Positions 3,140-29,664 of a stretch of DNA of 64,000 bases are shown here, one piece after another. Source of the stretch: Candidatus Aminicenantes bacterium (GTDB taxonomy: Bacteria > Acidobacteriota > Aminicenantia > Aminicenantales > Aminicenantaceae); assembly GCA_050115915.1 (NCBI GenBank), contig JASFPP010000001.1, positions 3,116-67,115 on the forward strand, written 5' to 3'. The notes under the pieces were generated by a model. It worked only from the letters and a program-made list of their open reading frames with translations. It was not told the origin of the DNA and ran no database searches. Every line of letters starts with the position of its first letter. Positions within the stretch are counted from its first letter, which is position 1. The position numbers and the translations under genes are program-made.

Positions 3140-4117
3140 TCAAGGCATCCTTTTAAAGATAAATTTCCAGAGATATTCTTTGGGGATTCCGAAAATTTTA
3201 TCCCTCCAGACACGGTCGCATTGACTGCAGGTTTTTAGATCATCGATGTCTTGTGCGAGCGCTTTTTTCCGCAGGCGCTGCATTTTGTCGTTATTCCAGA
3301 TCTCTCGGATGAGGGTATCTTTGACGTTTCCTAAAACGTAATAGCCAAAGAAGTCCTGCGTACACGGGAGCACAGCACCGTCCCAGAAAATGATCAGAGC
3401 GTGCCAGAGAAAAGTGCATGGAGAATAATTTTTGCGGTTTCTCTGACCCTCCACTTCCCCTGCCCAGTTGTGAAATTCTTTGATCTCCAGCCGGTTTAGC
3501 GGGAGTCCCTTGAATGTGTTAGTAAAATCTTTCCTTTGGCTTTTGTTGGCGCGGATCCGGTGCTCCGGGAAGTTTATCAGTTCTAAAATGGTGAAGGGTT
3601 TTTTGCTCTTTAATTCTTTCTTAATTTCCAAAAACCGCACGATATTTCCAACGGTTTTATTAAAATCTCCGTTGATCCGGATGCTTTCATAGGTGTCTTT
3701 ATCATACCCATCGAAGGAAAACGAGAATTGATCGATTCCGGATTCGATGAGCTTGTACGCTTTATCCTCATCCAGGAGTGTCCCGTTCGTGTGGAACTTG
3801 ACGATCAGTTTTTTATCGTGGGCGTACCTGGCCATTTTGAAAAAATCCGGATGGAGAAGCGATTCGCCTCGGTGAAGAAGATGCACATCTGCTGCAAATG
3901 CGGACACCTCGTCGATGATCTTCTTGAAAAGGTCGAACTCCATGAATCCCTTATCCTCTTTTTTGAGATCCTTGTTCGGACACATCACGCATTTTAGATT
4001 ACAGTGATTTGTCGGTTCTATCCACAGACGCACGGGCATCTGTTTCAGCACCACCTTCTGTCTTTTATAACTGATAAAAAGCCCTAGCAACCTGTTGTAG
4101 TATTCAAACTTATTCAT
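3140..4117 (-). CDS. radical SAM protein with C-terminal SPASM-type cysteine cluster
   Basis: CxxxCxxC motif in PTNHCNLKCVMCPN. Second Cys cluster CTFLW...CTQDFF...CSQCD near the C-terminus, as in SPASM/twitch domains. Only 33 nt separate it from rsmA upstream, so the two are probably co-transcribed. Confidence 0.8.
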   Translation of the reverse strand: MNKFEYYNRLLGLFISYKRQKVVLKQMPVRLWIEPTNHCNLKCVMCPNKDLKKEDKGFMEFDLFKKIIDEVSAFAADVHLLHRGESLLHPDFFKMARYAHDKKLIVKFHTNGTLLDEDKAYKLIESGIDQFSFSFDGYDKDTYESIRINGDFNKTVGNIVRFLEIKKELKSKKPFTILELINFPEHRIRANKSQRKDFTNTFKGLPLNRLEIKEFHNWAGEVEGQRNRKNYSPCTFLWHALIIFWDGAVLPCTQDFFGYYVLGNVKDTLIREIWNNDKMQRLRKKALAQDIDDLKTCSQCDRVWRDKIFGIPKEYLWKFIFKRMP

Positions 4118-6876: not shown

Positions 6877-7698
6877 TTGGAGTCACCAATGAAAAAAGAG
6901 ATCATCGTCGAGTTTTCCGGAGGTATCGACTCTCTCTATGCCGCCCATTTCCTGGCACGGCAGTACGAAAAGGTCCACCTTCTGACCTTCTATAAAGGCT
7001 ATTTGCATTTTGCTTTGAAAGCCAGCCGCCCCAATGTTGACCTGTTGAAAAAACTGCATGGCGAGGACAGAATCGTCTATAAGATCATCAATATTCGAGA
7101 TATATTTAGAGAGATGGCCGTTAAAAGCTACAAGGAAACCAGCAAGAATTACGGGAACGAAGTCGCCTGGTGTATCCCCTGCCGGGCATCGATGGCCATC
7201 GGCAGCATCATTTACGCCCTTGAGAACGAGATCTCTGAATTTACGGATGGTGCCAACTGGGAACAGGCGCCCGACGGAGAAAAACTCCTTGTGACTGCTG
7301 ACAATTATCCGGAGTTCTTGGAATCCGTCAAAAGTTTCGCGGAGGAATACAGCGTCCGTTACCTCCCTATACTCTACGACCTGAACACTCGGGAGGAACG
7401 GAGGGACGAACTCCTGAAGCTGGGTGCCAAAATTGACTTCAACAGTATGGACAGGAAGAAAAAGTCCGTCCTGGATGTGTTCGACCGTGATTTTTACAGC
7501 AGAGTCCAGCCCATCTGCCTGTCCGGTTACCTCGTCCATTGGAAGAGAAATTTCTTCAACGTCAAGGAAGATGTCACGCCCGAAAAGGTGGTGGAATCCA
7601 TCAAACCTAAACTCGATGGGGTGGGGAGAAAAATGATAGAGCTTTACTTTGAGAAAAAGAAGATCGATCTCCAAGACATCCTCAGCCACCGCAACTGA
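6877..7698 (+). CDS. PP-loop (adenine-nucleotide alpha-hydrolase) family ATP pyrophosphatase, ThiI/QueC-like; probable sulfur-transfer or amidation enzyme
   Basis: N-terminal PP-loop SGGIDS (FSGGIDSLYAAHFLA) and a conserved CIPCR cysteine pair. It sits next to the cysteine desulfurase. The fully antisense 268-aa ORF 6883..7689 has no motif and is rejected. Confidence 0.65.
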   Translation: MESPMKKEIIVEFSGGIDSLYAAHFLARQYEKVHLLTFYKGYLHFALKASRPNVDLLKKLHGEDRIVYKIINIRDIFREMAVKSYKETSKNYGNEVAWCIPCRASMAIGSIIYALENEISEFTDGANWEQAPDGEKLLVTADNYPEFLESVKSFAEEYSVRYLPILYDLNTREERRDELLKLGAKIDFNSMDRKKKSVLDVFDRDFYSRVQPICLSGYLVHWKRNFFNVKEDVTPEKVVESIKPKLDGVGRKMIELYFEKKKIDLQDILSHRN

Positions 7699-10832: not shown

Positions 10833-11522
10833 TTATCGCAATTTGGGATTTTGAGGGATTGGTTTTTTATGATTTTCAGGAGCTTTGATACAGGTATAAG
10901 CGATATGGGGATACCAGTAGCCCGAATGTTGGGGTATAGGCTCAACGGAAAAGCCGATACTTTGAAGCATGTCCAGATACTCTTTCTGGCTCCGGAAATA
11001 AAATCGTTCGCCCAGTGTGAAGCCGATCAGTTTGACGGCCAGAGTTTCCTGGAAGAGATTCCAGGCGTATTTCCACCGCGGCCTGGTGTCCATTTCTTTG
11101 ATGATAAGGATTCCTCCAGGCAGCAGGGATTGATAACATTTCCGGATGATGAGCTCATGTTTGTCATAGGGGATTAAATAGAGGACGTCGACGAGTGTGA
11201 AAACGTCCCCTTGGGGATAATCCGCCTCGACGACGTTGCCGATTTTATAGGTAATTTGGCCGGCATTGGTTTTTGTTGCGTTAGCGATTTCGATCTTTTT
11301 TTCGTCCAGGTCAAGCCCGATGATCTCTCTTTCAGGCGATCCCAAGCTCAAGATGTTGGGAAAAAGCCCATTGCCGCAGCCCAAGTCGACGATCGTTCCC
11401 TCTTTGGGAAAAAGTCCCTCTAGCTGGAGAAGAGGACAGATCTTCAGCTTGATCTTGAGATAGGCCCGGGTGATGGATCCAGCCTTGCTGTAGTGTTCGA
11501 ACAGCTCTTTTTTATCGATCAT
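10833..11522 (-). CDS. class I SAM-dependent methyltransferase
   Basis: Motif I VDLGCGNGLF and post-I acidic residue; 229 aa. Confidence 0.75.
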   Translation of the reverse strand: MIDKKELFEHYSKAGSITRAYLKIKLKICPLLQLEGLFPKEGTIVDLGCGNGLFPNILSLGSPEREIIGLDLDEKKIEIANATKTNAGQITYKIGNVVEADYPQGDVFTLVDVLYLIPYDKHELIIRKCYQSLLPGGILIIKEMDTRPRWKYAWNLFQETLAVKLIGFTLGERFYFRSQKEYLDMLQSIGFSVEPIPQHSGYWYPHIAYTCIKAPENHKKPIPQNPKLR

Positions 11523-11628: not shown

Positions 11629-13515
11629 TCAATCCATGTAGCGGTTGTACCAGAACTGGAAAATGACAAGCGGCCACAACAACTGCCGGTGGTTGTGTGC
11701 GCCCTGGAGGTGCTCTCCCAGGATTCTTTCGATGGCAGCCGGATTGAAAAATCTGTGCTTGTTTAAATTTTCCGGGGAAAGGACATCCGTGACAAAATCC
11801 TTGAGTTCCTTCCTGATCCAGATGCCCAGGGGAATATCGAAACCGATCTTTTTTCGTGTCAAAATTTCGGGCGGAAGATAGGGGGCCATCGCTTTTTTCA
11901 GGATGTGTTTGGTCGTCAGCCCCTTGAGTTTCAAAGAACTGGGGATGGCCCTGGCATATTCGACGAACGTGTGGTCGAGGAAGGGCACGCGGATCTCCAG
12001 GGAGTTGGCCATGCTCATTCTGTCCGTTTTAACGAGGAGGTCGTCCTGGAGGTAGAGCTTGAGGTCCAGATACCCGATCCGGCTCACAGTGTCATTTGCC
12101 GAACAGTTGTCGAGATGGAAGGAGATGGGAGCGAATACGTCCTGGCTCAATTTTTCATGGACATCGGCCGCAAACAGTTTTTCCCTCTCCGAGGGTCCAT
12201 AAGCCCCCCACCAGATGAAGTTTGCAATTTCAGGAGGATAGTCGATACCCGATATGAATTTTTTAGCTTTGAATTCAAAGCTGAGCCTTTTTCTCGAAGC
12301 AGGAAGGATCTTGACGATGTTTTTAACGAGTCCGTCTCTTATGAACTTCGGCACTTTTCTGTAGAGCCGCGCCACCTGATAGGCTTTGTAGGTGTCATAC
12401 CCGGCGAAGAGCTCGTCCCCACCCTCACCAGCCAGCGCGACTGTGACATACTGACGGGCCAGTTTCGAGATCAAATAAGTGGGGATGACCGATGCATCGG
12501 CCAGCGGCTCATCCATATATTCGATCAGCTTGGGAACCAGTTTTCTCACGAGATTCGACTCCACGACAAATTCCTGGTGGTCGGTCTGGAAGCGGTCGGC
12601 CACGATCTTGGCGTATCCCAGCTCGTTAAACGTCTCCTCTTTGAAGCCAATGGAAAAGGTTTTAATCCTCGTATCCGCCACCTCGCTCATGAGCGCTGTA
12701 ATGGAGCTCGAATCCATCCCCCCGCTCAGGAAAACTCCCAGAGGCACATCGCTGATGAGTCGTCTCTTCACCGATCCTTTCAGCCGCGTGTAGATCTCCT
12801 CCATTATCACGGTTTCGTTTTTTGAGGAACCTAAACCATTGCCCTGTTGGATATCCCAGTATTGTTTGATCTGGACCATTCGATCGTTGACGATCATCAT
12901 ATGTCCTGGCAAGAGTTTTTTTATTCCCTTGAAAATCGTCTGGGGGGCAGGAATGTACTCGAAGCTGAAGAATCGCGACATCCCGTCAAAATCCAGTTCC
13001 CGGGGATAACCGGCCTCGAGGATGGATTTGATCTCGGAGGAAAAAACCAGGGAGTTGTCCGACTGCCAGTAGTGGAGCGGTTTTATCCCCAGCCTGTCCC
13101 TTACGAGAATGAGTGTGTTCGTTTTAAGATTCCAGAGAGCAATGGCGAACATGCCGTTCAACCGGGAGATAAAACTCTCCCCTTCCTCTTCGTAGAGATG
13201 GACGATCACTTCTGTGTCGGACTTTGTGGCGAAAGAGTGCCCCTTCTGGATGAGCTCTTCCCGTAATTCAGGAAAATTGTAGATCTCCCCATTATAGACC
13301 ACCCAGACGCTTTTATCCTCGTTCGCAATGGGCTGGTGTCCTGTAACAAGATCGATGATACTCAGGCGCCGCATCCCTAGAGCGACTTTGTTATCTCTGT
13401 AGTAGCCCTCATCGTCCGGACCACGGTGCGTCATCACAGCGCACATCTTTTTTGTCGTGTCCTCTGCTTCAGGACCCAGGCCGTTGAATCCATAAACGCC
13501 GCAGATGCCGCACAT
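11629..13515 (-). CDS. asnB: asparagine synthetase B (glutamine-hydrolysing amidotransferase)
   Basis: N-terminal nucleophile MCGICGVYGF, PP-loop SGGMDSS, 628 aa. It sits inside a glycan cluster, so it could be a WbpS-like sugar amidotransferase. Confidence 0.9.
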   Translation of the reverse strand: MCGICGVYGFNGLGPEAEDTTKKMCAVMTHRGPDDEGYYRDNKVALGMRRLSIIDLVTGHQPIANEDKSVWVVYNGEIYNFPELREELIQKGHSFATKSDTEVIVHLYEEEGESFISRLNGMFAIALWNLKTNTLILVRDRLGIKPLHYWQSDNSLVFSSEIKSILEAGYPRELDFDGMSRFFSFEYIPAPQTIFKGIKKLLPGHMMIVNDRMVQIKQYWDIQQGNGLGSSKNETVIMEEIYTRLKGSVKRRLISDVPLGVFLSGGMDSSSITALMSEVADTRIKTFSIGFKEETFNELGYAKIVADRFQTDHQEFVVESNLVRKLVPKLIEYMDEPLADASVIPTYLISKLARQYVTVALAGEGGDELFAGYDTYKAYQVARLYRKVPKFIRDGLVKNIVKILPASRKRLSFEFKAKKFISGIDYPPEIANFIWWGAYGPSEREKLFAADVHEKLSQDVFAPISFHLDNCSANDTVSRIGYLDLKLYLQDDLLVKTDRMSMANSLEIRVPFLDHTFVEYARAIPSSLKLKGLTTKHILKKAMAPYLPPEILTRKKIGFDIPLGIWIRKELKDFVTDVLSPENLNKHRFFNPAAIERILGEHLQGAHNHRQLLWPLVIFQFWYNRYMD

Positions 13516-13559
13516 CGTCTTCCTCTGGTTCCCTAATGTATCTGAACACCGTTAGAATA

Positions 13560-13845
13560 TCAATCCCCAACTCGGAGAGCGGAATTTCTGAAACTGTGAC
13601 GGTGATGAATCGCGTCGCGCTTTTGGAAGTTCCAATTGTGTGGTGGAGAAAACCGTATGGAGGGCCGGACGGGCATGGTACATCTCCCCAAGGGAGATGT
13701 GAGGGAGGCCCGGAATCGAGTGAAATTTCCTCGCTGGGGAAATTGAACGTGTTTTCGAAATCAACAATTGGAGCTTTCGGAAAGTCATTCATCACAGTTT
13801 TGGAAAAGTTAGAGACGCGGAAGGAAAACGTGTGCGGGACATTGA
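13560..13845. repeat. copy B of the paralogous ~270-bp conserved element (reverse orientation relative to copy A)
   Basis: Reverse complement aligns ungapped with 2850..3115. It has the identical 22-mer (13639..13660 on the reverse strand) and the perfect 9-bp palindrome ACATCTCCC-caa-GGGAGATGT (13680..13700). It contains track ORF 13469..13867 (-) whose middle 55 aa align with the copy-A ORF. Confidence 0.6.
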
Positions 13846-13849
13846 GGTG

Positions 13850-13858
13850 TGGTATAAT
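13850..13858 (+). promoter_or_regulatory. extended -10 box TGGTATAAT about 29 nt upstream of the B12-radical-SAM gene start
   Basis: TGnTATAAT match, same TGGTATAA(T/A)TTG context as upstream of the 669..2798 gene. Confidence 0.4.
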
Positions 13859-13887
13859 TTGAGCCAAATTTTAAACGGACTGTTATT

Positions 13888-15276
13888 TTGAACGCAAACG
13901 AAGTCATCCTGCTCAACCCGCCGGGGGATAAACTCTACATCAGGGACTATTACTGCAGCTTTTCCTCCAAGGCCAACTACTACTGGCCGCCCCAGGACCT
14001 CATCTACCTCAGCGGAATTCTGGATGGAGAGTATAACGTCCGAGTGATCGATGCTATTATCAATAAAATGTCGGAGGAAGCTGTATTCAATGAGATCGTG
14101 GAATCCAGCGCCCGGGCTTTGATTTTCACAACCGGGACGGCAACGATGCAATCGGACCTCCGGTTGATGGAGCGGATCAAAGCCAAGACCGGTATAAAAA
14201 TTGTGGCCAGTGCTGGGATTTTGCCTTTTGTCGGGGAAGATCTTCTCGAGCGGCATCCCTATGTGGATGCCGTCATTCTGGATTTCACGAGCCCGAATAT
14301 TCGTGTTTTTCTCAAAGAAAACGGACAGATGGATTCACCTCTCCTGGGGCTTATCACAAGGAAAAATGGACAGTTTCTGAAGAGCACAGAGATGCCGCCG
14401 CGGACTTATGCTGTGCCTGTCCCCCGCCACGACCTCTTCGATTTTAAAAAATACCGGATCCCGATCGCCCGGAGATTCCCGTTCACTGTTGTTGTGACGT
14501 CGCTCGGCTGCCCTCACAGCTGCGGATTCTGCACGGCTGGTGCTTACGGTTACAGAACGAGGGATGTGGATGGAGTGATCGAAGAGCTTCGTTTGCTGAC
14601 TCGACTGGGTGTCAAGGAGATCCTATTCCAGGATCCCACGTTCACAATCAACACAAACCGTGTGGTCGAGATCTGCAGCAAAATGGTCGAAAACGCGTTC
14701 GATTTTACATGGAGCTGCAACGCCCACATCAAATCTTTCAACGAGGATAAGATCAAACACATGAAGGCAGCGGGATGCCATACGGTGTCGTTGGGCATCG
14801 AGAGCGGGAGCGATGAAATCCTCGAGAAGTATTCCAAAAAGATCACGACAGACGAGATTAAGAGTACGATTCGCATGCTGAACGCTTATAAGATCCATGT
14901 GCTGGGCTATTTTATCATCGGGCTTCCGGGGGATGACGAGGAATCCATCCGGAAGACGATCGATCTGGCCAAGGAGCTGGATATCGATTTTGCTTCATTT
15001 GCCATCGCTACTCCGGATGTGGGCACTCCACTGAGAGAAGAGGCCCTCCAGAAAGGATGGATGCGTCCCGAGGAGGATGTGTTCGACAGCACGGACTTCC
15101 CTGTGCTTGAGGCCGGAACTCTGTCGAAGGAGGAGGTCTGGAAGCTCAGAAACCAGGCAGTCCGGGAGTTTTACCTCAGGCCTTCTTATCTGTTCAAGAT
15201 GATCCGCCAGATCCGGAGTTTGCGCGATATCCAGGTGGCCGTCTCGAACGCCCTATCGCTTTTCCGAAAATCATGA
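13888..15276 (+). CDS. B12-binding radical SAM protein (HpnJ-like class B rSAM)
   Basis: N-terminal cobalamin-binding Rossmann region followed by the radical SAM motif GCPHSCGFCTAG; 462 aa. The ORF starts at TTG per the track. Confidence 0.85.
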   Translation: MNANEVILLNPPGDKLYIRDYYCSFSSKANYYWPPQDLIYLSGILDGEYNVRVIDAIINKMSEEAVFNEIVESSARALIFTTGTATMQSDLRLMERIKAKTGIKIVASAGILPFVGEDLLERHPYVDAVILDFTSPNIRVFLKENGQMDSPLLGLITRKNGQFLKSTEMPPRTYAVPVPRHDLFDFKKYRIPIARRFPFTVVVTSLGCPHSCGFCTAGAYGYRTRDVDGVIEELRLLTRLGVKEILFQDPTFTINTNRVVEICSKMVENAFDFTWSCNAHIKSFNEDKIKHMKAAGCHTVSLGIESGSDEILEKYSKKITTDEIKSTIRMLNAYKIHVLGYFIIGLPGDDEESIRKTIDLAKELDIDFASFAIATPDVGTPLREEALQKGWMRPEEDVFDSTDFPVLEAGTLSKEEVWKLRNQAVREFYLRPSYLFKMIRQIRSLRDIQVAVSNALSLFRKS

Positions 15277-16121
15277 AAAAAGTCATAATCAATGCCGATG
15301 ACTTCGGACTTGTCCAGGGAGTGAACGAGGGAATAATCAAAGCCCATAAAGAGGGCATCCTGACAAGCACAACACTTATGGCCAACATGCCGGGATTCGA
15401 TCAAGCCGTTGAATTGGCGGGGGCCCATCCGAATTTAGGCGTGGGTGTCCATCTCAATATCCTGAGAGGACAGCCCCTCTCACCGGTCGAGAAAGTGGAG
15501 AGCCTTCTCTCCAAAGACAGATGTTTTGTTCCAAGTGTGCCGCACCTCCTCCGTCGAATCTTGCTTAAACGTATAGGCATCGATGAGGTCGAGCGGGAGT
15601 TCAGGGCACAAGTGGAGAAGGTGAAGAATACCGGTCTCTCCCCCAGCCACATCGATAGCGAGAAACACATCCATATGATCCGGCCACTTTTCCGGATTGT
15701 CCTGAAGATAGCAAAGGAGTACAGGATCAACAGGGTACGGTTTATCCAGGAATGCTGTCTCTTCTTACGGCCCGGACAGATGTTGAAATCGATGCTCATC
15801 TCCCTGTCTTCAGCCTCCTTGAAAAAGAGGATGACGAATGAGGGGGTCCGATCACCTGACAGGTTTTATGGCGTTTGCGACAGCGGCCGGATTACCGCCG
15901 CTAAACTTAAAAAGGTCCTTCACAGAGTGAAGGAGGGTGTTACGGAAATTATGGTTCATCCTGGATTTATCACACAAGACATGTTAGAGTTAGAAACGAG
16001 AATCGGGCCTTATTACATCAATAAATACAGAGAGAAAGAGTTGAGTGCATTGCTCGATGAACGTTTGCCAGATGTCATTGCTGATCTGGGGATTCGGTTG
16101 ATAAATTTTAGTCATTTATGA
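15273..16121 (+). CDS. YdjC/ChbG-family carbohydrate deacetylase (HpnK / NaxD-like)
   Basis: MKKVIINADDFGL..GVNEGI..AHKEGILTSTTLMANMP is the YdjC signature; 4-nt start/stop overlap with the rSAM gene. Confidence 0.85.
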   Translation: MKKVIINADDFGLVQGVNEGIIKAHKEGILTSTTLMANMPGFDQAVELAGAHPNLGVGVHLNILRGQPLSPVEKVESLLSKDRCFVPSVPHLLRRILLKRIGIDEVEREFRAQVEKVKNTGLSPSHIDSEKHIHMIRPLFRIVLKIAKEYRINRVRFIQECCLFLRPGQMLKSMLISLSSASLKKRMTNEGVRSPDRFYGVCDSGRITAAKLKKVLHRVKEGVTEIMVHPGFITQDMLELETRIGPYYINKYREKELSALLDERLPDVIADLGIRLINFSHL

Positions 16122-16136
16122 TCGGTCAAAGATCCT

Positions 16137-17129
16137 ATGGATGAAAAACATATAAATCCGCAGATTTCGATCGTTGTTCCGTTTTATAACGAAGAAGACA
16201 ACATCAAAGAGCTCTATGAACAACTCACCCGGGTGCTTGGAGTGTTGGGCGCGTCGTACGAGCTGATCTTTATCGATGATGGGAGCACGGACCGCAGTCA
16301 TGACATATTGATTAAATTGTTCGCATCGGATAAAACCGTCAAAGTCATCCGGTTGCGTAAAAACTTCGGTCAAACGGCCGCTCTTCAGGCCGGATTCGAC
16401 CATGCCAGGGGAAAGATCATTATATCTATGGACGGGGACCTGCAGCATGATCCCGCAGATATCCCTAAACTATTGGCTCCAATAAGTGAGGGATTCGACA
16501 TTGCCTCTGGATGGAGAAAAGAACGGAAGGATAATTTTCTCCTGAGACGTTTTCCCTCCTGGGTGGCGAACCGCATCATGCGCCTCCTCTCTGGAGTTAA
16601 AATCCACGATTTTGGCACAACCTTTAAGGCCTACAGGAGAGATGTCCTCGAGGGGATCCGGCTTTACGGAGAGCTTCACCGTTTTATCCCTGCCCTTATC
16701 AGCCGGACGGGCGTAAAGATCACAGAGGTTCCGATCAAGAATGTGGTCCGCCAGAAAGGGAGATCCAAGTACGGCCTTTCGCGTATCCGCAGAGTGCTCT
16801 TCGACCTGATAACGGTCAAATTCATCATCAGCTTCATCGATCGGCCGCTGCAGTTTTTCGGACTGATCGGTATGATCCTCGGAGGGATCGGATTCACCAT
16901 CGCTCTTATCCTGACAGTGGGGTTTTACTTTTTTGAGTGGTCGATCCGGGACAACCTGGGGAATTTAATACTTGGTGTGTTCCTGATGATCCTGGGGCTC
17001 CAGTTCGTAATGACCGGCCTGCTGGCAGAGATCATCTCGCGGATCTATTTCACCACACACGAGATGCGGATCTACTCTGTGGCGGAGTTGAAGTCCCACG
17101 AACCTCCCGGGAGTGAAGAAGGGAGCTGA
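16137..17129 (+). CDS. GT2 polyprenyl-phosphate hexosamine/hexose transferase (ArnC/GtrB/FlmF2-like)
   Basis: ISIVVPFYNEEDNI, IFIDDGSTDRS and SMDGDLQHDP motifs, plus two C-terminal TM helices as in ArnC/GtrB. Confidence 0.8.
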   Translation: MDEKHINPQISIVVPFYNEEDNIKELYEQLTRVLGVLGASYELIFIDDGSTDRSHDILIKLFASDKTVKVIRLRKNFGQTAALQAGFDHARGKIIISMDGDLQHDPADIPKLLAPISEGFDIASGWRKERKDNFLLRRFPSWVANRIMRLLSGVKIHDFGTTFKAYRRDVLEGIRLYGELHRFIPALISRTGVKITEVPIKNVVRQKGRSKYGLSRIRRVLFDLITVKFIISFIDRPLQFFGLIGMILGGIGFTIALILTVGFYFFEWSIRDNLGNLILGVFLMILGLQFVMTGLLAEIISRIYFTTHEMRIYSVAELKSHEPPGSEEGS

Positions 17130-17155
17130 CCCAGGCCCTGGAAGAGGATAGGCTG

Positions 17156-19267
17156 TTGAACACCATTTTGTCCAGAAACGTTCAACAGAAAGCGGATCTT
17201 TTAATTTGGGTGGGCCTCGTCCTTTTCTGTGTTTTTATCCTTTGTCTTTTTATCCAATCCCTGGATGCCCTCTCTCTATGGATGGATGAAGGATTCTACT
17301 ATCTCGCCACTGAGAGGATCTTGGAACTGGGTTATCCTCTATTTCCTTCCGGACACATCTATTACAAAGCCATTTTGTATGCGTATGTTTCGGCTCTTTT
17401 CACCAAGATCTTTGGGTTCACAGTGTTCAATCTTAGGCTGATCAGCGTCCTGTGCACGATCGGTCTGATCCCTGTGCTTTATCTAGCGGGAAAAAAGCTG
17501 TTCAATCGAACGGTGGGTGTCGGTGCTGCCGTTGTTTTTTCTCTGTGTGTGTGGGTTGCCGAATACGGGCGCGTCGACCTCTACTTCGCCCCTCTTCAGC
17601 TTGTGAGTTTTGGCGGGCTTTATCTTTTTTACAGGGGATTTTTCGAGGAGAAAAAAACGTACAAAATATTTGCGACAGCGGTGTTTATCGCGGCACCCCT
17701 CGTCCATCAGCTGGGAATGAGCGTCTGGTTCTGTTATCCTGCTTTTTTCCTCGTCAAAGGGATACGAAGATTTGTCCGCAGGGATGTGCTTCTGAGTTTT
17801 TCTTTGACAACGGTGTTTTACATTCTTGTCCAGCTCCATGAGTATTTCTTCTGGGAAGTGGGGTATGTGTATGCCAAAACCGATCAGAGCATGCAGGGCA
17901 TGATCGAGTATTTTTTTGCCAGTTTTTCGCTCGACTATTTTTATGAGTTCTACGGCAGTTTTCCCCGAATGAGCCTGATCATCGGGGCCGGGAGTCTTCT
18001 CCTCCTCATCACCTTGTTTCGAGAAAGAAAAGCACAAGAATCCCGTACGCAATCCTTTTCGAAAAACTGGCTCTTTTTGTATCTCTGCCTGGTGTTCCCC
18101 CTGGTCTTCCTCGGCTTTTTCAGGACGCACGTCCAGCCCCGCTACCTCTACCAGCTGTATCCTCTTTTTGTTGTTCTCTATGCTGTTTGCCTTTTTCAGC
18201 TGTCACGGATCCTGATCGAGGTCTTGATGCTGCCTTACAAACAAAAAAGAGGCGCCGGTTTTTCGGTGGCAGCAGGAGTCCTTTTTGTGGCTCTTCTCTT
18301 TTTGACCGCAGAGGGCGTGGGTATCGGGAGGGTGAAGCGGATCGTCGATCGGCAGTATGGCGACTCCATCCAGACAGATATCGTCAACAGGTCGGGGAGA
18401 CATCAGCACTATGATCATAGAGGGCCGGGAGAGTATGTCCGGTACTTTCTCCGGGAAGATGACCTGGTTGTCGCCATCCATGTGGTCTTCCAAAACATCT
18501 ATGCAGGGAGGGTCGACTATTGGCTGTGGTCCGGGGGGCCCGGGACCTGGGATGCATGGGAGGAGACATCCGAGGGATGGAAGGATTTTTATATCGGAGC
18601 CAGGTGGATCAATAATCTGGAAGACCTGAGACAGGTGCTGGAAAAGGATCCCCAAAGGAGGGTTTGGATCATCGCATCTCCCTCTATCCTTCGCAGGGAT
18701 CACATCAACGCAAACATCGCTCGGTTCATCCAACGAGACCCGGAGAAGCTCGTATTTCGGGGCAAAGACGGTATGTCAGAGGTTTATCTATGGAATGACG
18801 CGACAGGGGCTCTAACAGGGCCCCCGTGCACGATGGAGGGAGAATGGATGCCTGCGCTTTTTGGGAAGGCCGTTTTCGAAGAAAATGCTTCAAGAGGCTG
18901 TGCTTTTTATATGCCCAAACAGAAGGAGGGCGGGAAACTCAGTTCCTACAAGACGGGGCAGGCATATTTTCCCGGGCGTTATTCGGTGTCTTTACGGGTT
19001 AAGGCCGAGGATTTCGAACGCGCTGGTGACCGATTGTTGGGCGTTGCCCTTCTCGACAGGCCTGGGGGAGACGAAGTGGTCTCTTACTTTATTACCGGAG
19101 ACAGGATCCAGGAAGGAGTGGATTACCAGGTTTATAGCTTCGATTATTATCAGAACAAGGAAAGTCAAATATATCTGAAGTTTTTATTCACAGGTCGAGG
19201 GAATGTGTGGCTCGATTATGTGGACATAAAGCCAGTGATTGAACCTCCGGCGGATAAATTTCCGTAG
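17156..19267 (+). CDS. GT-C fold membrane glycosyltransferase (ArnT/PMT, GT83/GT39-like)
   Basis: About 11-12 N-terminal TM helices with a DEGFYY motif in the first periplasmic loop, plus a ~300-aa C-terminal soluble domain. It sits directly downstream of the ArnC-like GT2. Confidence 0.7.
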   Translation: MNTILSRNVQQKADLLIWVGLVLFCVFILCLFIQSLDALSLWMDEGFYYLATERILELGYPLFPSGHIYYKAILYAYVSALFTKIFGFTVFNLRLISVLCTIGLIPVLYLAGKKLFNRTVGVGAAVVFSLCVWVAEYGRVDLYFAPLQLVSFGGLYLFYRGFFEEKKTYKIFATAVFIAAPLVHQLGMSVWFCYPAFFLVKGIRRFVRRDVLLSFSLTTVFYILVQLHEYFFWEVGYVYAKTDQSMQGMIEYFFASFSLDYFYEFYGSFPRMSLIIGAGSLLLLITLFRERKAQESRTQSFSKNWLFLYLCLVFPLVFLGFFRTHVQPRYLYQLYPLFVVLYAVCLFQLSRILIEVLMLPYKQKRGAGFSVAAGVLFVALLFLTAEGVGIGRVKRIVDRQYGDSIQTDIVNRSGRHQHYDHRGPGEYVRYFLREDDLVVAIHVVFQNIYAGRVDYWLWSGGPGTWDAWEETSEGWKDFYIGARWINNLEDLRQVLEKDPQRRVWIIASPSILRRDHINANIARFIQRDPEKLVFRGKDGMSEVYLWNDATGALTGPPCTMEGEWMPALFGKAVFEENASRGCAFYMPKQKEGGKLSSYKTGQAYFPGRYSVSLRVKAEDFERAGDRLLGVALLDRPGGDEVVSYFITGDRIQEGVDYQVYSFDYYQNKESQIYLKFLFTGRGNVWLDYVDIKPVIEPPADKFP

Positions 19268-19337
19268 GGAATGAATCAAACAATCGAAACTTATCAATAT
19301 GAATGAGCGAACGGAGAAGAAACGAAAGGAGGGTGGG

Positions 19338-20090
19338 ATGAACAACGATTTTCGGGGGAGTGTGCAGAAGGAGCTCATCGATAAAAGGGGATCTTTTTTT
19401 TCCAAGTATTCCTCACTGTTTCTTGGCAGGAAAAATCTCTTTTCGTTTCTCAGGTATGAGTGTGTGCTTCTGCTCTTCTCAGGGGTGCCCGGGGCGCTGG
19501 GCTTCTTCCTACGGAAAGTTTTCTACCCTGGCTTATTCAAACAGGTTGGGAAAGGCGTGGTCTTCGGACGGAACATTACCCTACGGCATCCCAAGAAGAT
19601 CTCTATAGGCGCGAATACCTTCATCGACGACAACGTGGTGCTCGACGCGAAGGGCGAGGAAAACCAGGGGATAATCATCGGAGAAAATGTCTATATCGGC
19701 CGGAATACCATCTTGAGCTGCAAAGAGGGTTCGATATCCCTAGATGATTTCTGCAACATCTCGGCCAACTGTATGCTCCTCTCAGAGACGGATATCCGTT
19801 TAGGAAAATACTGCTTTTTAGCGGGGCAATGCTACCTCGTGGCCGGCGGGAATCACACATTCGATGACATATCCGTTCCGATCATGTTCCAGCCCTCCTA
19901 TTCCAAAGGGGGAATCACCGTCGGTGAGGATGTTTGGCTGGCAGCCGGCGTTATTGTCCTGGATGGGATCAATGTCGGCAAAGGGACCGTTGTTGGCGCA
20001 GGATCCGTAGTCACCGAATCCCTCCCTGAGTATTGTATTGCTGTCGGAAGTCCCGCCCAAAAGATCAAAGACAGAAAGATTGCCGTTTAA
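19338..20090 (+). CDS. left-handed beta-helix (hexapeptide-repeat) acyl/acetyltransferase
   Basis: Repeated [LIV]GxxxxI hexapeptides (IGANTFIDDNVVL, IGENVYIGRNTIL, VGEDVWLAAGVIV, VGKGTVVGAGSVV). Start placed at the Met with a GGAGGG Shine-Dalgarno (track start 19299). Confidence 0.7.
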   Translation: MNNDFRGSVQKELIDKRGSFFSKYSSLFLGRKNLFSFLRYECVLLLFSGVPGALGFFLRKVFYPGLFKQVGKGVVFGRNITLRHPKKISIGANTFIDDNVVLDAKGEENQGIIIGENVYIGRNTILSCKEGSISLDDFCNISANCMLLSETDIRLGKYCFLAGQCYLVAGGNHTFDDISVPIMFQPSYSKGGITVGEDVWLAAGVIVLDGINVGKGTVVGAGSVVTESLPEYCIAVGSPAQKIKDRKIAV

Positions 20091-22223: not shown

Positions 22224-23204
22224 TTAAAGCCAGTTGTGGGCTTTCGACCACTCCACGGTTTGTAAAATTCCCTCCGCAAAGCTGATCTTTGGGGAATAGC
22301 CAAGCTCTTGTTTGGCTTTTTGGATCGCCAGCGGTTTGGGGTGGATGAAAAAGCTCAGTCTCCCTCGGGTAAGAGGCGCTTCTTTTTTAAAAAGGGCAAA
22401 GGTCCTCTCCAGGACTGATGCAGCCATTATCACGGGAAAAAGGGGAAGGGAGATCGGCGGGATCTTGTTTCCCGCTGTCGATGCGATTGTGGCTACGATA
22501 TCCTTCACACTTAAGACTTCGCTCCCGGCGATGTGATAAATTTGGCCCTTCCGCCCCATCTCTGCGCACAGGAAAACGCCCTCCACCAGGTCGTCGATGT
22601 GGACGGGCGTCTGCTGCGCATTCCCCTTTGTCACGAGCAAAAATCTTTTTTTGGCGATAGCTTTTATGAGTTTAAATGTTCGCCGATCCCCGGGCCCATA
22701 GGCCCACCCCGGCCTGACGATGGCGATGTCCATTCCCTCTTCTGCAAATTGCCGAGCGATGTTCTCTCCCTCGAGCTTGCTCCGGTCATAACTGTTTTGG
22801 GGGTTTGGAACGAAGTCCTCGTTGGCCGCTTCGCCCCCTTCAACTGATCCCAAAACACCCGCAGAGCTGAAATGGACAGTTTTTGGGATACCGGCTGCTT
22901 TTGCAGCTTGGAGCACGTTTTTTGTCCCCTCAGCGTTTATACGAAAAAATTCGTTTTCTGAGAGGATCGATGCGCCCAAGGCGGCTGCACAGTGGAAGAG
23001 AAGATCCACTCCCTCAAAGATTCCTTCCAGAGTCACCGGGCTTGTGATGTCGCCTTTAACGACCTCATAGCTTTGACTGTTTGACCCCTTTCTTCCCATT
23101 GGACGTGTGTGCTGGAAGACACGGACATTCCATTTTTTTCGAAGACATCCCTCGATCAGGGCACGGCCGATGAATCCCGATGCTCCTGTGATAAACGCTC
23201 TCAT
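22224..23204 (-). CDS. NAD-dependent sugar epimerase/dehydratase (SDR family)
   Basis: Rossmann motif ITGASGFIGRAL at the N-terminus (start moved to the Met directly preceding it; track start 23231), plus a YxxxK catalytic region. Confidence 0.85.
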   Translation of the reverse strand: MRAFITGASGFIGRALIEGCLRKKWNVRVFQHTRPMGRKGSNSQSYEVVKGDITSPVTLEGIFEGVDLLFHCAAALGASILSENEFFRINAEGTKNVLQAAKAAGIPKTVHFSSAGVLGSVEGGEAANEDFVPNPQNSYDRSKLEGENIARQFAEEGMDIAIVRPGWAYGPGDRRTFKLIKAIAKKRFLLVTKGNAQQTPVHIDDLVEGVFLCAEMGRKGQIYHIAGSEVLSVKDIVATIASTAGNKIPPISLPLFPVIMAASVLERTFALFKKEAPLTRGRLSFFIHPKPLAIQKAKQELGYSPKISFAEGILQTVEWSKAHNWL

Positions 23205-23217
23205 CGTGATAAGACCC

Positions 23218-24384
23218 TTATCCCTTCGCACCCATAGCTGTATCGAGAACTTGAGCTATTTTATCTTTATAACGGGGATACGTGTAGTCACGGTCGGCAT
23301 TTTCCTTAGCTGCCCTCGCCCTTTCTTGAGCTCTGCTGTCAAAAAGGGCATAGGCGATTCCCTCAGCCATACACTCCGCATCGGGCTCGACAAGGACGGA
23401 TATCTGGTCGTTCAGGACCTGCGTGTGTGTCCAGAGGTTCGTGGCCACGAGCGGCTTTCCTGATTTGAGAAAGGAGTAGATTTTGAGCGGGGTGTTCGTT
23501 CCGGATAGACGGGGCGAGACCAAGACATCAGCCAGGCCGATAAAGAGAGGCATTTGTGCGGGAGGAACCTGTCCTGTAAAAAAGACTTTCTCAGCGATCC
23601 CCAGTTCGCGGGCCTTTTCCTTTTCCCTCTCGACAGCAGCCGGACTCTCTCCCACGAGCAGGAAGACGACTCTGTCATTCTGGAATTGGGATGCGGCCTC
23701 CAATAAAAGCGATATCCCCTGGTAAGGCTGGAAATTACCCGCATAAAGCACGATTTTTTTATCCTTGGGGACAAATTCTTCACGTTTTTGTCTGATCTCC
23801 TCTTGAGTGAATTCCTCTGTTTCGAAATCGATGAAATTTTCGAGGAGAATTGCCTTTGCAGCATAGCCCTCTTTTTCGACCTGTTTGAGGAGATCGAGGC
23901 AGATCACGATGATTGCCCGCGAATTCTTCAGGATGAACCGCTCCATGCTTATAAAGATTCTTTTCAGAAGCCTGGATCGCGAAAAATTGAAATTCTCCAG
24001 CTGTTGGGGAAGACTGGAATGCATATCGTAGATGTGGGGTGTTCGCGATAGCTTGCTCAGGATAACTCCAAAAAGAGCCCCCTCTTCATGAGAGAAGACG
24101 AGATCGTACCTGTTTCGCAATAGCAATCCGCTTGCCTTGAGAAAAAGGAGAAAATCGAGGGGTATCTTTTTGAGCGAAGGACCGATCTTGATCTTTTTTA
24201 TGAAAAAAAGATTGGGGATCCTGGAGATCTTAAGGTTTTTGATCTCTTTGTCCTCTCCCAGGTGATAGGTCACAAGATCGACATCGTGTCCGAGGTCGGA
24301 GAGGGCCCTGATTCTTTGGTAAACGCTGATGGGTGTTCCCCGTGGCTGGAAGAAGGGTTCCGGGGCGAGCATTAGAATTTTCAT
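23218..24384 (-). CDS. GT4 family (GT-B fold) glycosyltransferase
   Basis: 388 aa, MKILMLAPEPFFQPRGTPISVYQR N-terminal domain and C-terminal EX7E-like region (LVSPRLSGTNTPLKIYSFLKSGKPLVATN). Confidence 0.8.
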   Translation of the reverse strand: MKILMLAPEPFFQPRGTPISVYQRIRALSDLGHDVDLVTYHLGEDKEIKNLKISRIPNLFFIKKIKIGPSLKKIPLDFLLFLKASGLLLRNRYDLVFSHEEGALFGVILSKLSRTPHIYDMHSSLPQQLENFNFSRSRLLKRIFISMERFILKNSRAIIVICLDLLKQVEKEGYAAKAILLENFIDFETEEFTQEEIRQKREEFVPKDKKIVLYAGNFQPYQGISLLLEAASQFQNDRVVFLLVGESPAAVEREKEKARELGIAEKVFFTGQVPPAQMPLFIGLADVLVSPRLSGTNTPLKIYSFLKSGKPLVATNLWTHTQVLNDQISVLVEPDAECMAEGIAYALFDSRAQERARAAKENADRDYTYPRYKDKIAQVLDTAMGAKG

Positions 24385-24395
24385 TGATCTTCAGC

Positions 24396-25385
24396 TTATT
24401 CGGATGACGGATCTCGTTCAGAGTCAAAGATCTCCCGTACGAAATAGATCCTTTTGTCTACCGACTCGTGGTAGGCGCGGACCATGATCTCTGCCAAAAG
24501 CCCCAGAGTGATGAACTGGATCCCGATAACAATGAGCAATATGGCCAACAGCAGCAAGGGGCGTCCTGAGATGCCCACCTTGAGAATGAGACGCTGATAG
24601 GAGAGGTATAAGCCAATGAGGAATCCGACGATACCGCTGGCCAGCCCGAATACGCCGAATATCTGGAGAGGTCGTGTGGAATAACTCAAGAGAAATTTGA
24701 CTGTGAGAAGGTCGAGGATGACTTTGACGAACCGGAACACCGTGTATTTGGACTTTCCGTGCTTCCTTGGCCGGTGGTTAACTTCAACCTCAGCTATAGA
24801 AACCCCGATATTGCTGGCAATGGCTGGAATGAACCTGTGCAGCTCTCCGTAAAGATTGATGTTTTTGATGACCTCTTTTCGGAAAGCCTTCAGAGTGCAC
24901 CCAAAATCATGAAGCTTGATGTGCGTGATCTTGGAGATAAGCCAATTGGCCATGGCCGAGGGGATGCGACGTGTCAAAAGGCGGTCCTTTCTTTTTTTCC
25001 TCCATCCGCTGACAATATCGTAACCCTTGTGGATCTTTTCGAGAAGAAGAACGAAGTCTTGAGGATCATTCTGAAGGTCTGCATCCAAGGTGATGATCAC
25101 CTCTCCTTTGGCATAATCGAAACCAGCGGAAAGGGCTGCCGTTTGGCCGAAATTTTTTCTCAGCCGGATAACTTTCACCTTGGGATCCTCCTTTTGGATG
25201 CCCCGCAACACCGGAAAAGTCAAATCCCAGCTTCCGTCATCGACAAAAATGATCTCATAGGAGAGGTTCAGTCCTATTGAGGCTTTCGTGATCTCTTCAT
25301 AGAGGTCTGGCAGGTTTTTCTCCTCGTTAAAAACCGGCACTACGATGGAAAGTGCAAGAGGCTCCTTGGGATTCATTGCGGTCAA
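24396..25385 (-). CDS. GT2 polyprenyl-phosphate sugar transferase (ArnC/GtrB-like), second copy
   Basis: LSIVVPVFNEEKNL, IFVDDGS, LDADLQNDPQD motifs and two C-terminal TM helices. It is paralogous to 16137..17129. Confidence 0.8.
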   Translation of the reverse strand: MTAMNPKEPLALSIVVPVFNEEKNLPDLYEEITKASIGLNLSYEIIFVDDGSWDLTFPVLRGIQKEDPKVKVIRLRKNFGQTAALSAGFDYAKGEVIITLDADLQNDPQDFVLLLEKIHKGYDIVSGWRKKRKDRLLTRRIPSAMANWLISKITHIKLHDFGCTLKAFRKEVIKNINLYGELHRFIPAIASNIGVSIAEVEVNHRPRKHGKSKYTVFRFVKVILDLLTVKFLLSYSTRPLQIFGVFGLASGIVGFLIGLYLSYQRLILKVGISGRPLLLLAILLIVIGIQFITLGLLAEIMVRAYHESVDKRIYFVREIFDSERDPSSE

Positions 25386-28377: not shown

Positions 28378-28597
28378 ATCCATGCACGCGGTACGGGATG
28401 TCCTCATTGTTTAATGGAGAAAACCGTTTGAAGGGATAAACGGGCGCGTGGCGTCGCCCATGGGAGGTGCCCCATGTTTGAAGGAAGTTACTTCGCAGGG
28501 GAAAGGGATCGGAATTTCGTTTTCGATATCATACTACAGGGGCACTTGAGATAACCGTGGATCTGATTTGGTTTTGCGAGGGACTTTGGAAGTTGGG

Positions 28598-28626
28598 TTG
28601 CATTTTAGTGTGATAAGTGTTAAATT
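28598..28626 (+). promoter_or_regulatory. candidate sigma70 promoter of the atpF'-atpC operon
   Basis: TTGCAT, 17-nt spacer, TAAATT (28621..28626), 40 nt upstream of the atpF' ATG. Confidence 0.4.
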
Positions 28627-28666
28627 TTCCTCTAATTTTAGCGTCAGATTTGTGTGAAATTTTGCT

Positions 28667-29083
28667 ATGTTAACTGTAGATGCAACTCTCCTCATCGTGT
28701 TCTTCATCGTATGGATCCTTCTATTTGTTTTGAAGAGGATTTTTTTCAAACCTCTAAAGGATATCATGGCCAGGCGGGATAAGACCATTGCGAACAATCT
28801 TCGAGCGGGAGAAGAGGCGAAGACCCGGTATGAGGCAAGTATCGCTAAGATCGAAGAAGACTTGAAAGCTGCACGTCTCCGAGCCAAGGAAACCCAGGAG
28901 AAGTTCACAGCAGATGCTCTGCGCGAAAAGGAGAGGATGCTGTCCGCAGTAGGGCAGGAATGTCGGGCGAGGGTCAATGAAGCCAAGGAGCAGCTGGAAC
29001 AGAAGGTGGATGAACTCAAGGAGGACCTGGCTGCCGAAAGCGGAGTGCTCTCTGAGAAGATCGAAAAGAGGCTGCTCAACTGA
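28667..29083 (+). CDS. atpF: F0F1 ATP synthase subunit b' (second b-type stalk subunit)
   Basis: Single N-terminal TM helix then long charged coiled coil (ARRDKTIANNLRAGEEAKTRYEA...), 138 aa. Confidence 0.8.
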   Translation: MLTVDATLLIVFFIVWILLFVLKRIFFKPLKDIMARRDKTIANNLRAGEEAKTRYEASIAKIEEDLKAARLRAKETQEKFTADALREKERMLSAVGQECRARVNEAKEQLEQKVDELKEDLAAESGVLSEKIEKRLLN

Positions 29084-29664
29084 TGAAACGCAAAGTCCCT
29101 TTTGTCCTTATAATTATTGTGCTTCCCTTTTTCCTCTTCATGTCCGTCGAAGAGGAACATCATGGATCCGATCCCATGGCCTTTATAGCCAAGGTGTTCA
29201 ATTTCCTTATCCTCTTCGGAGGGCTGGCTTACCTGTTGCGCAAGCCGATCCAGCGTTTCTTGGCCGAACGAGCGGTCGAGATCGATACAACCATAAAAGA
29301 TGCTGAGGAACTGCGGCATGGCGCCGAAACTGATTTGGAAAAAGCCGAGAGGCGGCTGAGCGAATTGAGTCGAGAGATCGAGGAGCTCAGGAAAAAAGCT
29401 GTCCTGGACGGGGAGAGAGAAAAGGAGCGAATAATCCGCGCAGCTCGTGAGGAGGGAGAGAGGATGAAGGGGACTGCAGAGCAGGAGATCGAAATGATCT
29501 CCAGGGCCGGGATCAAGGGGCTTAAGGAATACGCTGTGTCTCTTGCCGCCGCTGAGGCTTTGAACAGGATCCAGGCTCAACTCTCTCCCGAAAAACACAC
29601 GCAGCTCATCGACGACTCCATCGAAAGGTTAGAGGATCTGTATGAAACATCGCGTTCTCGTTAA
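29083..29664 (+). CDS. atpF: F0F1 ATP synthase subunit b
   Basis: TM helix plus coiled-coil stalk (AERAVEIDTTIKDAEELRHGAE...), 193 aa, follows b'. Confidence 0.8.
   Translation: MKRKVPFVLIIIVLPFFLFMSVEEEHHGSDPMAFIAKVFNFLILFGGLAYLLRKPIQRFLAERAVEIDTTIKDAEELRHGAETDLEKAERRLSELSREIEELRKKAVLDGEREKERIIRAAREEGERMKGTAEQEIEMISRAGIKGLKEYAVSLAAAEALNRIQAQLSPEKHTQLIDDSIERLEDLYETSRSR

Follow-up and report, generated by a model that had tools for sequence, protein, structure and literature searches.

A radical SAM enzyme in a putative envelope-glycan decoration operon of Candidatus Aminicenantes

Introduction

Which pathway is served by an operon that encodes a radical S-adenosylmethionine (SAM) enzyme together with a YdjC-family deacetylase, a family 2 glycosyltransferase (GT2) and a membrane-embedded glycosyltransferase of the GT-C type? 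The question is raised by a stretch of 64,000 nucleotides (hereafter the window, whose numbering is used throughout) from a Candidatus Aminicenantes bacterium (GenBank assembly GCA_050115915.1, contig JASFPP010000001.1, positions 3,116 to 67,115), in which four such genes are found on the plus strand at 13888-19267. A preliminary description of this DNA had compared them with the hopanoid enzymes HpnI, HpnK and HpnJ as well as with the lipid A-modifying enzymes of Francisella and Bordetella. It proposed that an HpnJ-like, B12-binding radical SAM (rSAM) enzyme remodels a polyprenol-linked amino sugar, possibly to a cyclitol, before the sugar is transferred to lipid A or another envelope acceptor.

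Pairs of a polyprenyl-phosphate-sugar synthase and a GT-C enzyme are known to decorate lipid A, O-antigens, teichoic acids and arabinogalactan on the periplasmic side. On balance, our analysis favours an envelope-glycan decoration operon that follows this scheme and extends it by rSAM tailoring of a lipid-linked hexosamine. The sections below report what was observed on the genes and their conserved linkage, on folds and on placement in families; substrates and products are all inferred.

Gene content and conservation of the block

The four genes were recovered exactly in the open reading frame (ORF) list, tightly packed and on the plus strand. The rSAM gene (13888-15276, 462 aa; Pfam Radical_SAM) overlaps by 4 nt with the gene for the YdjC-family deacetylase (15273-16121, 282 aa; Pfam YdjC). 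The ArnC/GtrB-type GT2 gene (16137-17129, 330 aa) follows after a gap of 15 nt, and the GT-C glycosyltransferase gene (17156-19267, 703 aa; Pfam PMT_2) after another 26 nt. With only 31 nt in between, the plus strand continues with a hexapeptide acyltransferase gene of the WcaF type (19299-20090; Pfam Hexapep), whose product may serve in O- or N-acyl tailoring. Divergently, on the minus strand, lie the genes for an AsnB-like glutamine amidotransferase (11629-13515; Pfam Asn_synthase and GATase_7) and for a class I SAM methyltransferase of 229 aa (10833-11522) with generic methyltransferase domains in Pfam. The divergent intergenic region of 372 nt (13516-13887) presumably holds the promoters of both transcription units.

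The conservation of this arrangement was assessed by scanning one genome per species, which gave 38 loci onto which the window proteins were mapped by tblastn. The order with the AsnB-like gene on the minus strand and rSAM-YdjC-GT2-GT-C-acyltransferase on the plus strand is retained in 10 other species-level Aminicenantes genomes (L001, L003-L008, L010, L011 and L019), with identities to the window of 52-89% for the four partner proteins and 59-86% for the rSAM protein. This recurrence indicates a real, selected arrangement and not a chance one. In 13 loci the AsnB-like gene is the immediate neighbour of the rSAM gene, and in two more distant Aminicenantes loci (L013 and L015), ordered rSAM-YdjC-GT2-AsnB-methyltransferase, it is co-directional with the operon. 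The methyltransferase gene is kept beside the AsnB-like gene in Aminicenantes loci and travels with the module. The conserved block thus exceeds the four genes to which the preliminary description had confined it, since the acyltransferase and the divergent AsnB-like/methyltransferase pair are conserved alongside. The acyltransferase gene comes after the GT-C gene in L001, L004-L008, L010, L011 and L019. Its product has a left-handed beta-helix and an N-terminal hydrophobic segment, and scored 94 bits, below the cut-off, with the NCBIfam WcaF-family model; the AsnB-like protein reached 615 bits against a cut-off of 817 with the XrtA/PEP-CTERM amidotransferase model.

Gene order varies around this theme. 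One locus (L030) shows YdjC-GT2-rSAM followed by a PMT-type GT-C gene, and another (L012) has the GT-C gene on the opposite strand. Of 33 Aminicenantes loci, 24 have a GT-C gene no more than a few kb away from the rSAM gene; in six of the other nine the contig ends beside the rSAM gene. The GT-C enzyme is either of the 703-aa type or of a roughly 790-aa PMT/PMT_2 type encoded directly downstream, and the association also holds where YdjC and GT2 genes are not nearby. Such a case is provided by L020 (10001-13866), L017 (10001-13745) and L039 (6317-14902), where an rSAM orthologue of 59-61% identity is followed by a roughly 790-aa PMT/PMT_2 GT-C gene and then by ftsK, with neither YdjC nor GT2 within 10 kb; in L039 both GT-C types flank the rSAM gene. 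In the locus of a related metagenome-assembled genome (MAG; L002, 9671-13732) the order is rSAM-YdjC-GT2-acyltransferase, the GT-C gene alone being cleanly missing between GT2 and acyltransferase.

A promoter consensus scan gave 7 sites versus 5.8 expected, which is chance level and uninformative for operon limits. Terminator-like sites were above chance (16 versus 7.8 expected, sd 2.8) but lie dispersed within genes and coincide with no boundary of a unit. Scans of the 64-kb window for tRNAs and Rfam families returned no matches.

Glycosyltransferases, deacetylase and the likely acceptor

As judged from its homologies, the GT2 of the operon is an ArnC/GtrB-type polyprenyl-phosphate glycosyltransferase, putatively a polyprenyl-phosphate N-acetylhexosamine (HexNAc) synthase, and not HpnI. 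Its residues 3-315 match residues 3-310 of solved ArnC 9hwj (phmmer E 3.5e-55), with further matches to ArnC 9bhc and 8vxh, to GtrB 5ekp (E 1.6e-38) and to DPMS, and the protein carries the motifs DDGS and DGD as well as two transmembrane helices at about 237-301. The full-length match bears out the earlier description of an ArnC-like GT2, at the level of type: with 195 bits against a cut-off of 529 for the ArnC equivalog the protein is not an ArnC orthologue, and the PpgS model gave about 40 bits. Real HpnI is only 23% identical (E 9e-5) and the HpnI model gave no match. A second ArnC-like GT2 gene is present in the window at 24396-25385; its product is 50% identical to the operon GT2 and scores higher with the ArnC model (228 bits). 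It belongs to a minus-strand group (22224-25385) with a family 1 glycosyltransferase gene and a short-chain dehydrogenase/reductase (SDR) gene, the SDR matching the HpnA model best (168 bits versus a cut-off of 368). No second GT-C that could use the product of the second GT2 was found in the window.

The neighbouring deacetylase is a member of the YdjC family, as had been described before, matching PF04794 with 226.8 bits across the full profile and containing the motif NADDFG. It missed the cut-off of the HpnK model (193.3 versus 232.6 bits) and is 32% identical to real HpnK. NaxD, of the same family, deacetylates undecaprenyl-P-GalNAc (PMC11279074). By analogy with this role, and from the adjoining genes for an ArnC-type GT2 and a GT-C enzyme, we propose that the protein would remove the N-acetyl group from polyprenyl-P-HexNAc.

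The 703-aa protein gave a single sequence-level match, to Pfam PMT_2 with 34 bits, and no match to NCBIfam models or PDB sequences. Its AlphaFold2 (AF2) model (pLDDT 83) was matched by Foldseek to ArnT at the top (5ezm/5f15, E 4e-10, TMt 0.56-0.58), followed by Emb proteins, AglB, ALG9, Pmt4 and AftB. Since ArnT and other GT-C enzymes are its top structural matches, the protein is a GT-C, with the acidic first periplasmic loop of this fold represented by the invariant residues D44-E45 after the first transmembrane helix. The earlier description as ArnT-like therefore holds for the fold. Orthology to ArnT was rejected: identity is 15% and there is no sequence-level membership of the ArnT family. 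Sequence homologues were found in Aminicenantes only (173 matches).

In the predicted structure, a membrane domain like that of ArnT is joined to a periplasmic alpha/beta domain, and the C-terminal part forms a beta-sandwich resembling carbohydrate-binding modules (CBMs); the matches of this sandwich, at TMt about 0.5-0.57, are CBM16, CBM4 (CBM4-2) and a porphyran-binding CBM. At 35109-37310 (plus strand) the window encodes an ABC-dependent polysaccharide exporter, made up of a Wzm-like permease and a Wzt ATPase that bears a Wzt_C carbohydrate-binding domain. This exporter could supply a periplasmic glycan that is decorated by the GT-C. The preliminary description had named lipid A or another envelope acceptor; because of the CBM-like domain and the Wzm/Wzt exporter, a glycan acceptor is at least as well indicated as lipid A. 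A polysaccharide or lipopolysaccharide glycan appears more likely as acceptor than the lipid A phosphates.

Family, fold and cofactor of the rSAM protein

The rSAM protein matches Pfam Radical_SAM (PF04055) with 100 bits and carries the cluster motif CPHSCGFC. The CX3CX2C cysteines C208, C212 and C215 do not vary among 13 close or 31 distant homologues, which places the protein in the radical SAM superfamily. An NCBI protein named Candidatus Aminicenantes is 100% identical to it. The domain calls of the preliminary description, including YdjC, a GT2 with C-terminal transmembrane helices and a multi-spanning PMT_2 protein, were thus recovered with the exception of the B12-binding domain, as Pfam PF02310 was undetected in the window protein at E<=0.001. 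The protein had also been called HpnJ-like, and HpnJ (TIGR03471) is indeed the top named NCBIfam model, matching over nearly the full length. However, the score of 188.1 bits is far from the cut-off of 577.6, and identity to three annotated HpnJ proteins, from authentic hpnJ-hpnI-hpnK loci of Burkholderiaceae replicons, is 26-28%. The AprD4 model gave 144 bits (cut-off 500), PhpK 136 and BchE 123.

Our searches did reveal a large set of closer relatives. Among 1.84 billion cluster representatives there were more than 150 full-length relatives (50%-identity clusters) with 31-59% identity and 280-625 bits, all of them nearer to the window protein than HpnJ. None of nine tested family members reached any NCBIfam cut-off, and the HpnJ model gave 115-178 bits for them. 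The family shares the N-terminal signature LLNPPG.K.Y.RD.YCS..SK..YYWPP.DL..LSG, which is not present in HpnJ, in BchE or in the B12-rSAM paralogues encoded beside family members. We ran the phylogenetic placement against HpnJ that had been recommended as a check, using neighbour-joining on Poisson distances with 200 bootstrap replicates. The Aminicenantes rSAM proteins formed one clade in 200/200 replicates; HpnJ formed a separate clade, likewise in 200/200, never included the window protein, and was sister to the family in 1/200. The rSAM protein is thus only remotely HpnJ-like and belongs to a large unnamed family of its own.

The AF2 model (pLDDT 80) has a Rossmann-like domain at the N-terminus and a radical SAM barrel after it. 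Its top Foldseek match is AprD4 (6fd2) over the whole length (TM 0.77-0.78), at a sequence identity of 23%, ahead of the cobalamin enzymes MgmA, TsrM, OxsB and TokK (E 1e-28 against 6e-22). In aminoglycoside biosynthesis, paromamine acquires its glucosamine ring in the form of GlcNAc, which is deacetylated afterwards. AprD4 is a 1,2-diol dehydratase acting on this ring (PMC5461906), and binds no cobalamin despite its Rossmann-like domain (PMC12931638). As PF02310 was undetected and the best structural match is cobalamin-free, cobalamin dependence of the window protein is unproven, although precomputed Pfam annotations list the B12-binding domain for about one third of its close homologues. Clear B12-rSAM paralogues encoded by neighbouring genes of related loci fall outside the family in the tree. 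Four related rSAM genes, about 26% identical and likewise outside the family, were seen in a cultured sulfate reducer, on plasmid pDCAR1 of Solidesulfovibrio carbinolicus DSM 3852 (L044, 56890-82299). The surrounding locus is of the glycan type and also encodes an SDR, acyltransferases, a glycosyltransferase, an SGNH hydrolase and a sialate O-acetylesterase.

Gene neighbourhoods of the wider family

The rSAM-YdjC pair is not restricted to Aminicenantes. It recurs in four Planctomycetales MAGs (L032, L033, L034 and L036) at only 35-38% identity, in the order GT2-methyltransferase-rSAM-YdjC. In three of them (L033, L034 and L036) a homologue of the window methyltransferase, 32-36% identical, lies directly upstream of the rSAM gene, and there was no match in L032. 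Two more rSAM paralogues are encoded directly downstream in the same three loci, and L032 has one weaker rSAM match upstream. One of these loci (L033, 4636-19730) also holds genes for an ABC-2 exporter, a flavin-dependent (FAD) amine oxidase, a nitroreductase and a carbamoyltransferase, and loci of this type give the impression of the same core with further elaboration.

Further out, eight contexts were sampled around family members that are 38-47% identical to the window rSAM protein. A short GT2 (231-312 aa), mostly DPM1/GtrB/PpgS-like, is encoded within a few kb in all eight and often adjoins the rSAM gene; a GT-C (PMT_2 or STT3) is present in seven and class I methyltransferases in six. 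Half of the contexts encode a deacylase, which is YdjC in L054 and an ArnD-like Polysacc_deac_1 protein in L041, L042 and L052, and L041 also has an AsnB-like gene. L042 resembles a full Arn-type pathway, with SDR, NTP-transferase, DegT, formyltransferase, a deformylase-like gene, GT2+DUF2304, PMT_2 and five rSAM genes. In L051 (377-14041) the genes for a GT2 (239 aa), the family rSAM protein and a PMT_2 protein (566 aa) form a contiguous trio. This metagenomic locus, whose family rSAM protein occurs on 23 contigs, contains eight rSAM genes including the family member, placed around the trio; one of them encodes a 935-aa double-rSAM fusion. It is chiefly because such neighbours (short GT2, GT-C, deacylases and methyltransferases) recur across phyla that we propose polyprenyl-phosphate-linked sugars, on their way to a GT-C enzyme, as the substrates of the family.

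Proposed pathway and comparison with known systems

From these data we suggest the following sequence of events. At the cytoplasmic face, the GT2 would move HexNAc from a UDP-sugar onto polyprenyl phosphate, as its full-length homology suggests, and the YdjC enzyme, by analogy with NaxD and LgmC, would take off the acetyl group to give polyprenyl-P-hexosamine. The rSAM enzyme might then abstract a hydrogen atom from the sugar ring and alter the ring while the anomeric phosphate is kept. An AprD4-type dehydration/deoxygenation seems the most plausible chemistry, with epimerisation and C-methylation as alternatives. Methyltransferase, AsnB-like amidotransferase and hexapeptide acyltransferase may decorate the sugar further. 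After flipping by a flippase encoded outside the operon, the ArnT-fold GT-C would hand the modified sugar to a periplasmic glycan acceptor, which the CBM-like domain is predicted to bind. A deacetylated substrate for the rSAM enzyme is suggested by its relatives: HpnJ, the best NCBIfam match, acts on a deacetylated glucosamine ring (PMC13459092), although recent reviews list it as putative and its mechanism as unexplored (PMC13459092; PMC9204698). Both HpnJ and AprD4 act on glucosamine that is installed as GlcNAc and then deacetylated, which fits the 4-nt overlap of the rSAM and YdjC genes.

Several known systems resemble parts of this scheme. In the Bordetella LgmA/LgmB/LgmC and Francisella FlmF2/NaxD/FlmK systems, which likewise combine an ArnC-like GT2, a YdjC-family deacetylase and an ArnT-fold GT-C, HexNAc is loaded on undecaprenyl phosphate, deacetylated and transferred periplasmically to lipid A. 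In contrast to these systems, the locus described here includes an rSAM enzyme, a hexapeptide acyltransferase, an AsnB-like amidotransferase and a methyltransferase; its GT-C is about 150 aa longer with the CBM-like beta-sandwich, and the trio is not orthologous. HpnI, HpnK and HpnJ share the logic of a glycosyltransferase, a YdjC deacetylase and an rSAM enzyme acting in turn on an exposed glucosamine, and HpnJ and HpnK are the top named models, both below cut-off, for two operon proteins. Here, however, the carrier is presumably polyprenyl phosphate and not bacteriohopanetetrol, a GT-C is linked, and hopanoid genes are absent from the window. AprD4 (PDB 6FD2), the nearest solved structure, shares the N-terminal Rossmann-like domain and the radical SAM barrel, but at low identity, and the rSAM gene has no adjoining AprD3-type reductase gene and lies in an envelope-glycan locus instead of an aminoglycoside cluster. 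Finally, the Arn pathway (ArnA/B/C/D/T) and mycobacterial PpgS/Rv3632/Rv3779 also combine a GT-C with a polyprenyl-P-aminosugar synthase and a deacylase, and Arn-like parts (ArnA-like formyltransferase, ArnD-like Polysacc_deac_1, DegT and GT2+DUF2304 pairs) occur in wider-family loci. Both pathways work without a radical SAM step, and the proteins encoded here are not orthologues, as illustrated by the ArnC score of the GT2.

A number of observations weigh against our interpretation. The substrate of the rSAM enzyme is assigned from gene neighbourhood alone, and the wider-family clade was supported in 106/200 (53%) of the bootstraps. About one third of the Aminicenantes loci have the rSAM gene beside a GT-C gene with no YdjC or GT2 gene within 10 kb, so that the link to a hexosamine is not universal, and the trio in L051 is a case of the family working without a deacetylase. 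The rSAM gene lacks a neighbouring gene for an AprD3-like reductase partner, which specifically weakens the deoxygenation option, and the CBM-like assignment comes from a predicted structure with TM about 0.5-0.57. The operon encodes no flippase, and a search of the window for small flippases of the GtrA/ArnE/F type found none. The host organism is uncultured. The only candidate for a lipid-linked-sugar flippase in the window is a flippase-like domain protein of 314 aa with about eight transmembrane helices, encoded 34 kb from the operon at 53533-54477 (minus strand), which matches TIGR00374 above the cut-off (69.6 bits) and HpnL weakly.

Alternative explanations

The alternative that stands closest to the preliminary description is a ring contraction of the HpnJ type, by which polyprenyl-P-glucosamine would become a carbocyclic aminocyclitol that the GT-C transfers to lipid A. 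The nearly full-length HpnJ match (188 bits), the overlap of the rSAM gene with a YdjC/HpnK-like gene, the structural match of the GT-C to ArnT and a nearby GT9 heptosyltransferase-like gene all agree with it. Yet the HpnJ cut-off (577.6 bits) is far from reached, identity stays at 26-28%, HpnJ lacks the family signature and forms its separate clade in 200/200 replicates (sister to the family in 1/200), the rSAM structure is nearest to AprD4, and the CBM-like domain is not an ArnT feature. Chemical reasoning also makes a cyclitol donor unlikely, since ring contraction removes the anomeric carbon and leaves a phosphate ester that is no glycosyl donor for an inverting GT-C. We therefore regard ring contraction as quite unlikely: of the earlier proposal, the general idea that the rSAM enzyme remodels a lipid-linked sugar before transfer fits the comparative genomics, whereas the cyclitol product, which has no anomeric centre, was not upheld. 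Next to negligible is the possibility of canonical hopanoid side-chain genes hpnI/J/K with the other pathway genes elsewhere in the genome. Some Acidobacteriota do produce hopanoids (PMC5462960), and the window contains sub-threshold matches to HpnJ (188 bits), HpnK (193), HpnA (168), HpnL (49) and HpnB (50), but no Hpn match reaches its curated cut-off, the GT2 is of the ArnC type and not HpnI, and linkage to a GT-C has no role in hopanoid synthesis. A squalene-hopene cyclase had been reported absent from the vicinity, and this holds for the entire 64-kb window, in which shc, hpnH and hpnI were not found and none of the five ORFs of at least 600 aa is a cyclase. A survey of high-quality bacterial genomes, a set not comprising MAGs of this lineage, found HpnI and HpnJ domains only in genomes also carrying SHC and HpnH (bioRxiv 10.1101/2025.07.29.667474). 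The preliminary description had already set the operon apart from canonical hpnIJK, and with the cut-offs missed and the wrong GT2 type that identity is effectively refuted at the family level.

The rSAM enzyme might also act elsewhere, on a nucleotide-sugar precursor, the polyprenyl carrier or a protein or peptide acceptor, leaving YdjC, GT2 and GT-C to a plain hexosamine transfer of the Lgm/Flm type. PMT-family GT-C enzymes can glycosylate proteins (GT39), Aminicenantes clades C and D have the rSAM gene directly beside a roughly 790-aa PMT-type GT-C gene and neither YdjC nor GT2 within 10 kb of it, and nucleotide-sugar enzymes (NTP-transferase, DegT and SDRs) occur in wider-family loci. We nevertheless hold this to be somewhat unlikely, because a short polyprenyl-P-type GT2 adjoins or nearly adjoins the rSAM gene in 8/8 wider-family contexts, the L051 trio among them, because the rSAM and YdjC genes, which share 4 nt here, are direct neighbours in a second phylum too, and because the nearest characterised relatives use glycoside-bound hexosamine and not nucleotide sugars or peptides. 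If instead the lipid-linked sugar is the substrate, the enzyme could be a cobalamin-dependent class B C-methyltransferase that C-methylates it one or more times. C-methylation of aminosugars is known for class B enzymes such as GenK (PMC9204698), the cobalamin-dependent methylases MgmA, TsrM and TokK are among the structural matches, and both the B12-binding annotation of about one third of the close homologues and the several clear B12-rSAM paralogues in related loci point in this direction. These paralogues, however, lie outside the family in the tree, PF02310 is undetected in the window protein, and cobalamin-free AprD4 is its best structural match by a wide margin, so that a C-methyltransferase seems unlikely to us.

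Genomic surroundings

The setting of the operon is a chromosomal envelope-glycan neighbourhood. In addition to the genes discussed above, a GT9 heptosyltransferase-like gene and a GT2 gene lie upstream on the minus strand, and housekeeping genes for ATP synthase, Mfd, KsgA and SufS are found in the window. Upstream of the operon, next to ksgA, the minus strand encodes a 709-aa GDSL/SGNH-domain protein (669-2798) and a radical SAM/SPASM maturase-like protein (3140-4117). In other Aminicenantes (L039, L020, L043 and L052) the rSAM locus is likewise bordered by this GDSL protein, along with AMIN-domain and PKD-repeat proteins, which suggests a conserved chromosomal envelope region that exchanges its glycan genes. 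Two regions of the window with ORFs of 268-354 aa have no assignment: 28534-29598 (minus strand) matches neither Pfam nor NCBIfam, and 6877-7698, with long ORFs on both strands, has no Pfam match.

Implications

The operon appears to represent a known decoration scheme to which a step by an rSAM enzyme of a large unnamed family has been added, each part being from a known superfamily. The gene association is robust and appears to be undescribed: full-text literature searches returned no description of this combination as a pathway, as the preliminary description had surmised, and no characterised polyprenyl-P-sugar/GT-C example with radical chemistry on the lipid-linked donor was found in the literature.

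Beyond this operon, we tentatively suggest, as a proposal that is plausible rather than probable, that rSAM proteins of about 460 aa with the LLNPPG..RD.YCS signature might form a widespread family dedicated to the radical tailoring of polyprenyl-phosphate-linked sugars before their transfer by GT-C enzymes. Such tailoring could comprise deoxygenation, epimerisation or a change of the carbon skeleton and would, if true, constitute a new biochemical layer in the diversification of bacterial envelope glycans that is common in uncultured anaerobes. For annotation, the sub-threshold HpnJ, HpnK, HpnA, HpnB and HpnL matches at such loci are a trap and no sign of hopanoid capacity. If the assignment holds, a large annotation bin of proteins now labelled radical SAM protein, BchE-like or YgiQ-like would gain a function, and the study of how radicals act on glucosamine rings would have a third case beside HpnJ and AprD4. 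The envelopes of abundant sediment anaerobes would then be predicted to contain unusual aminosugars of deoxy, branched or rearranged structure.

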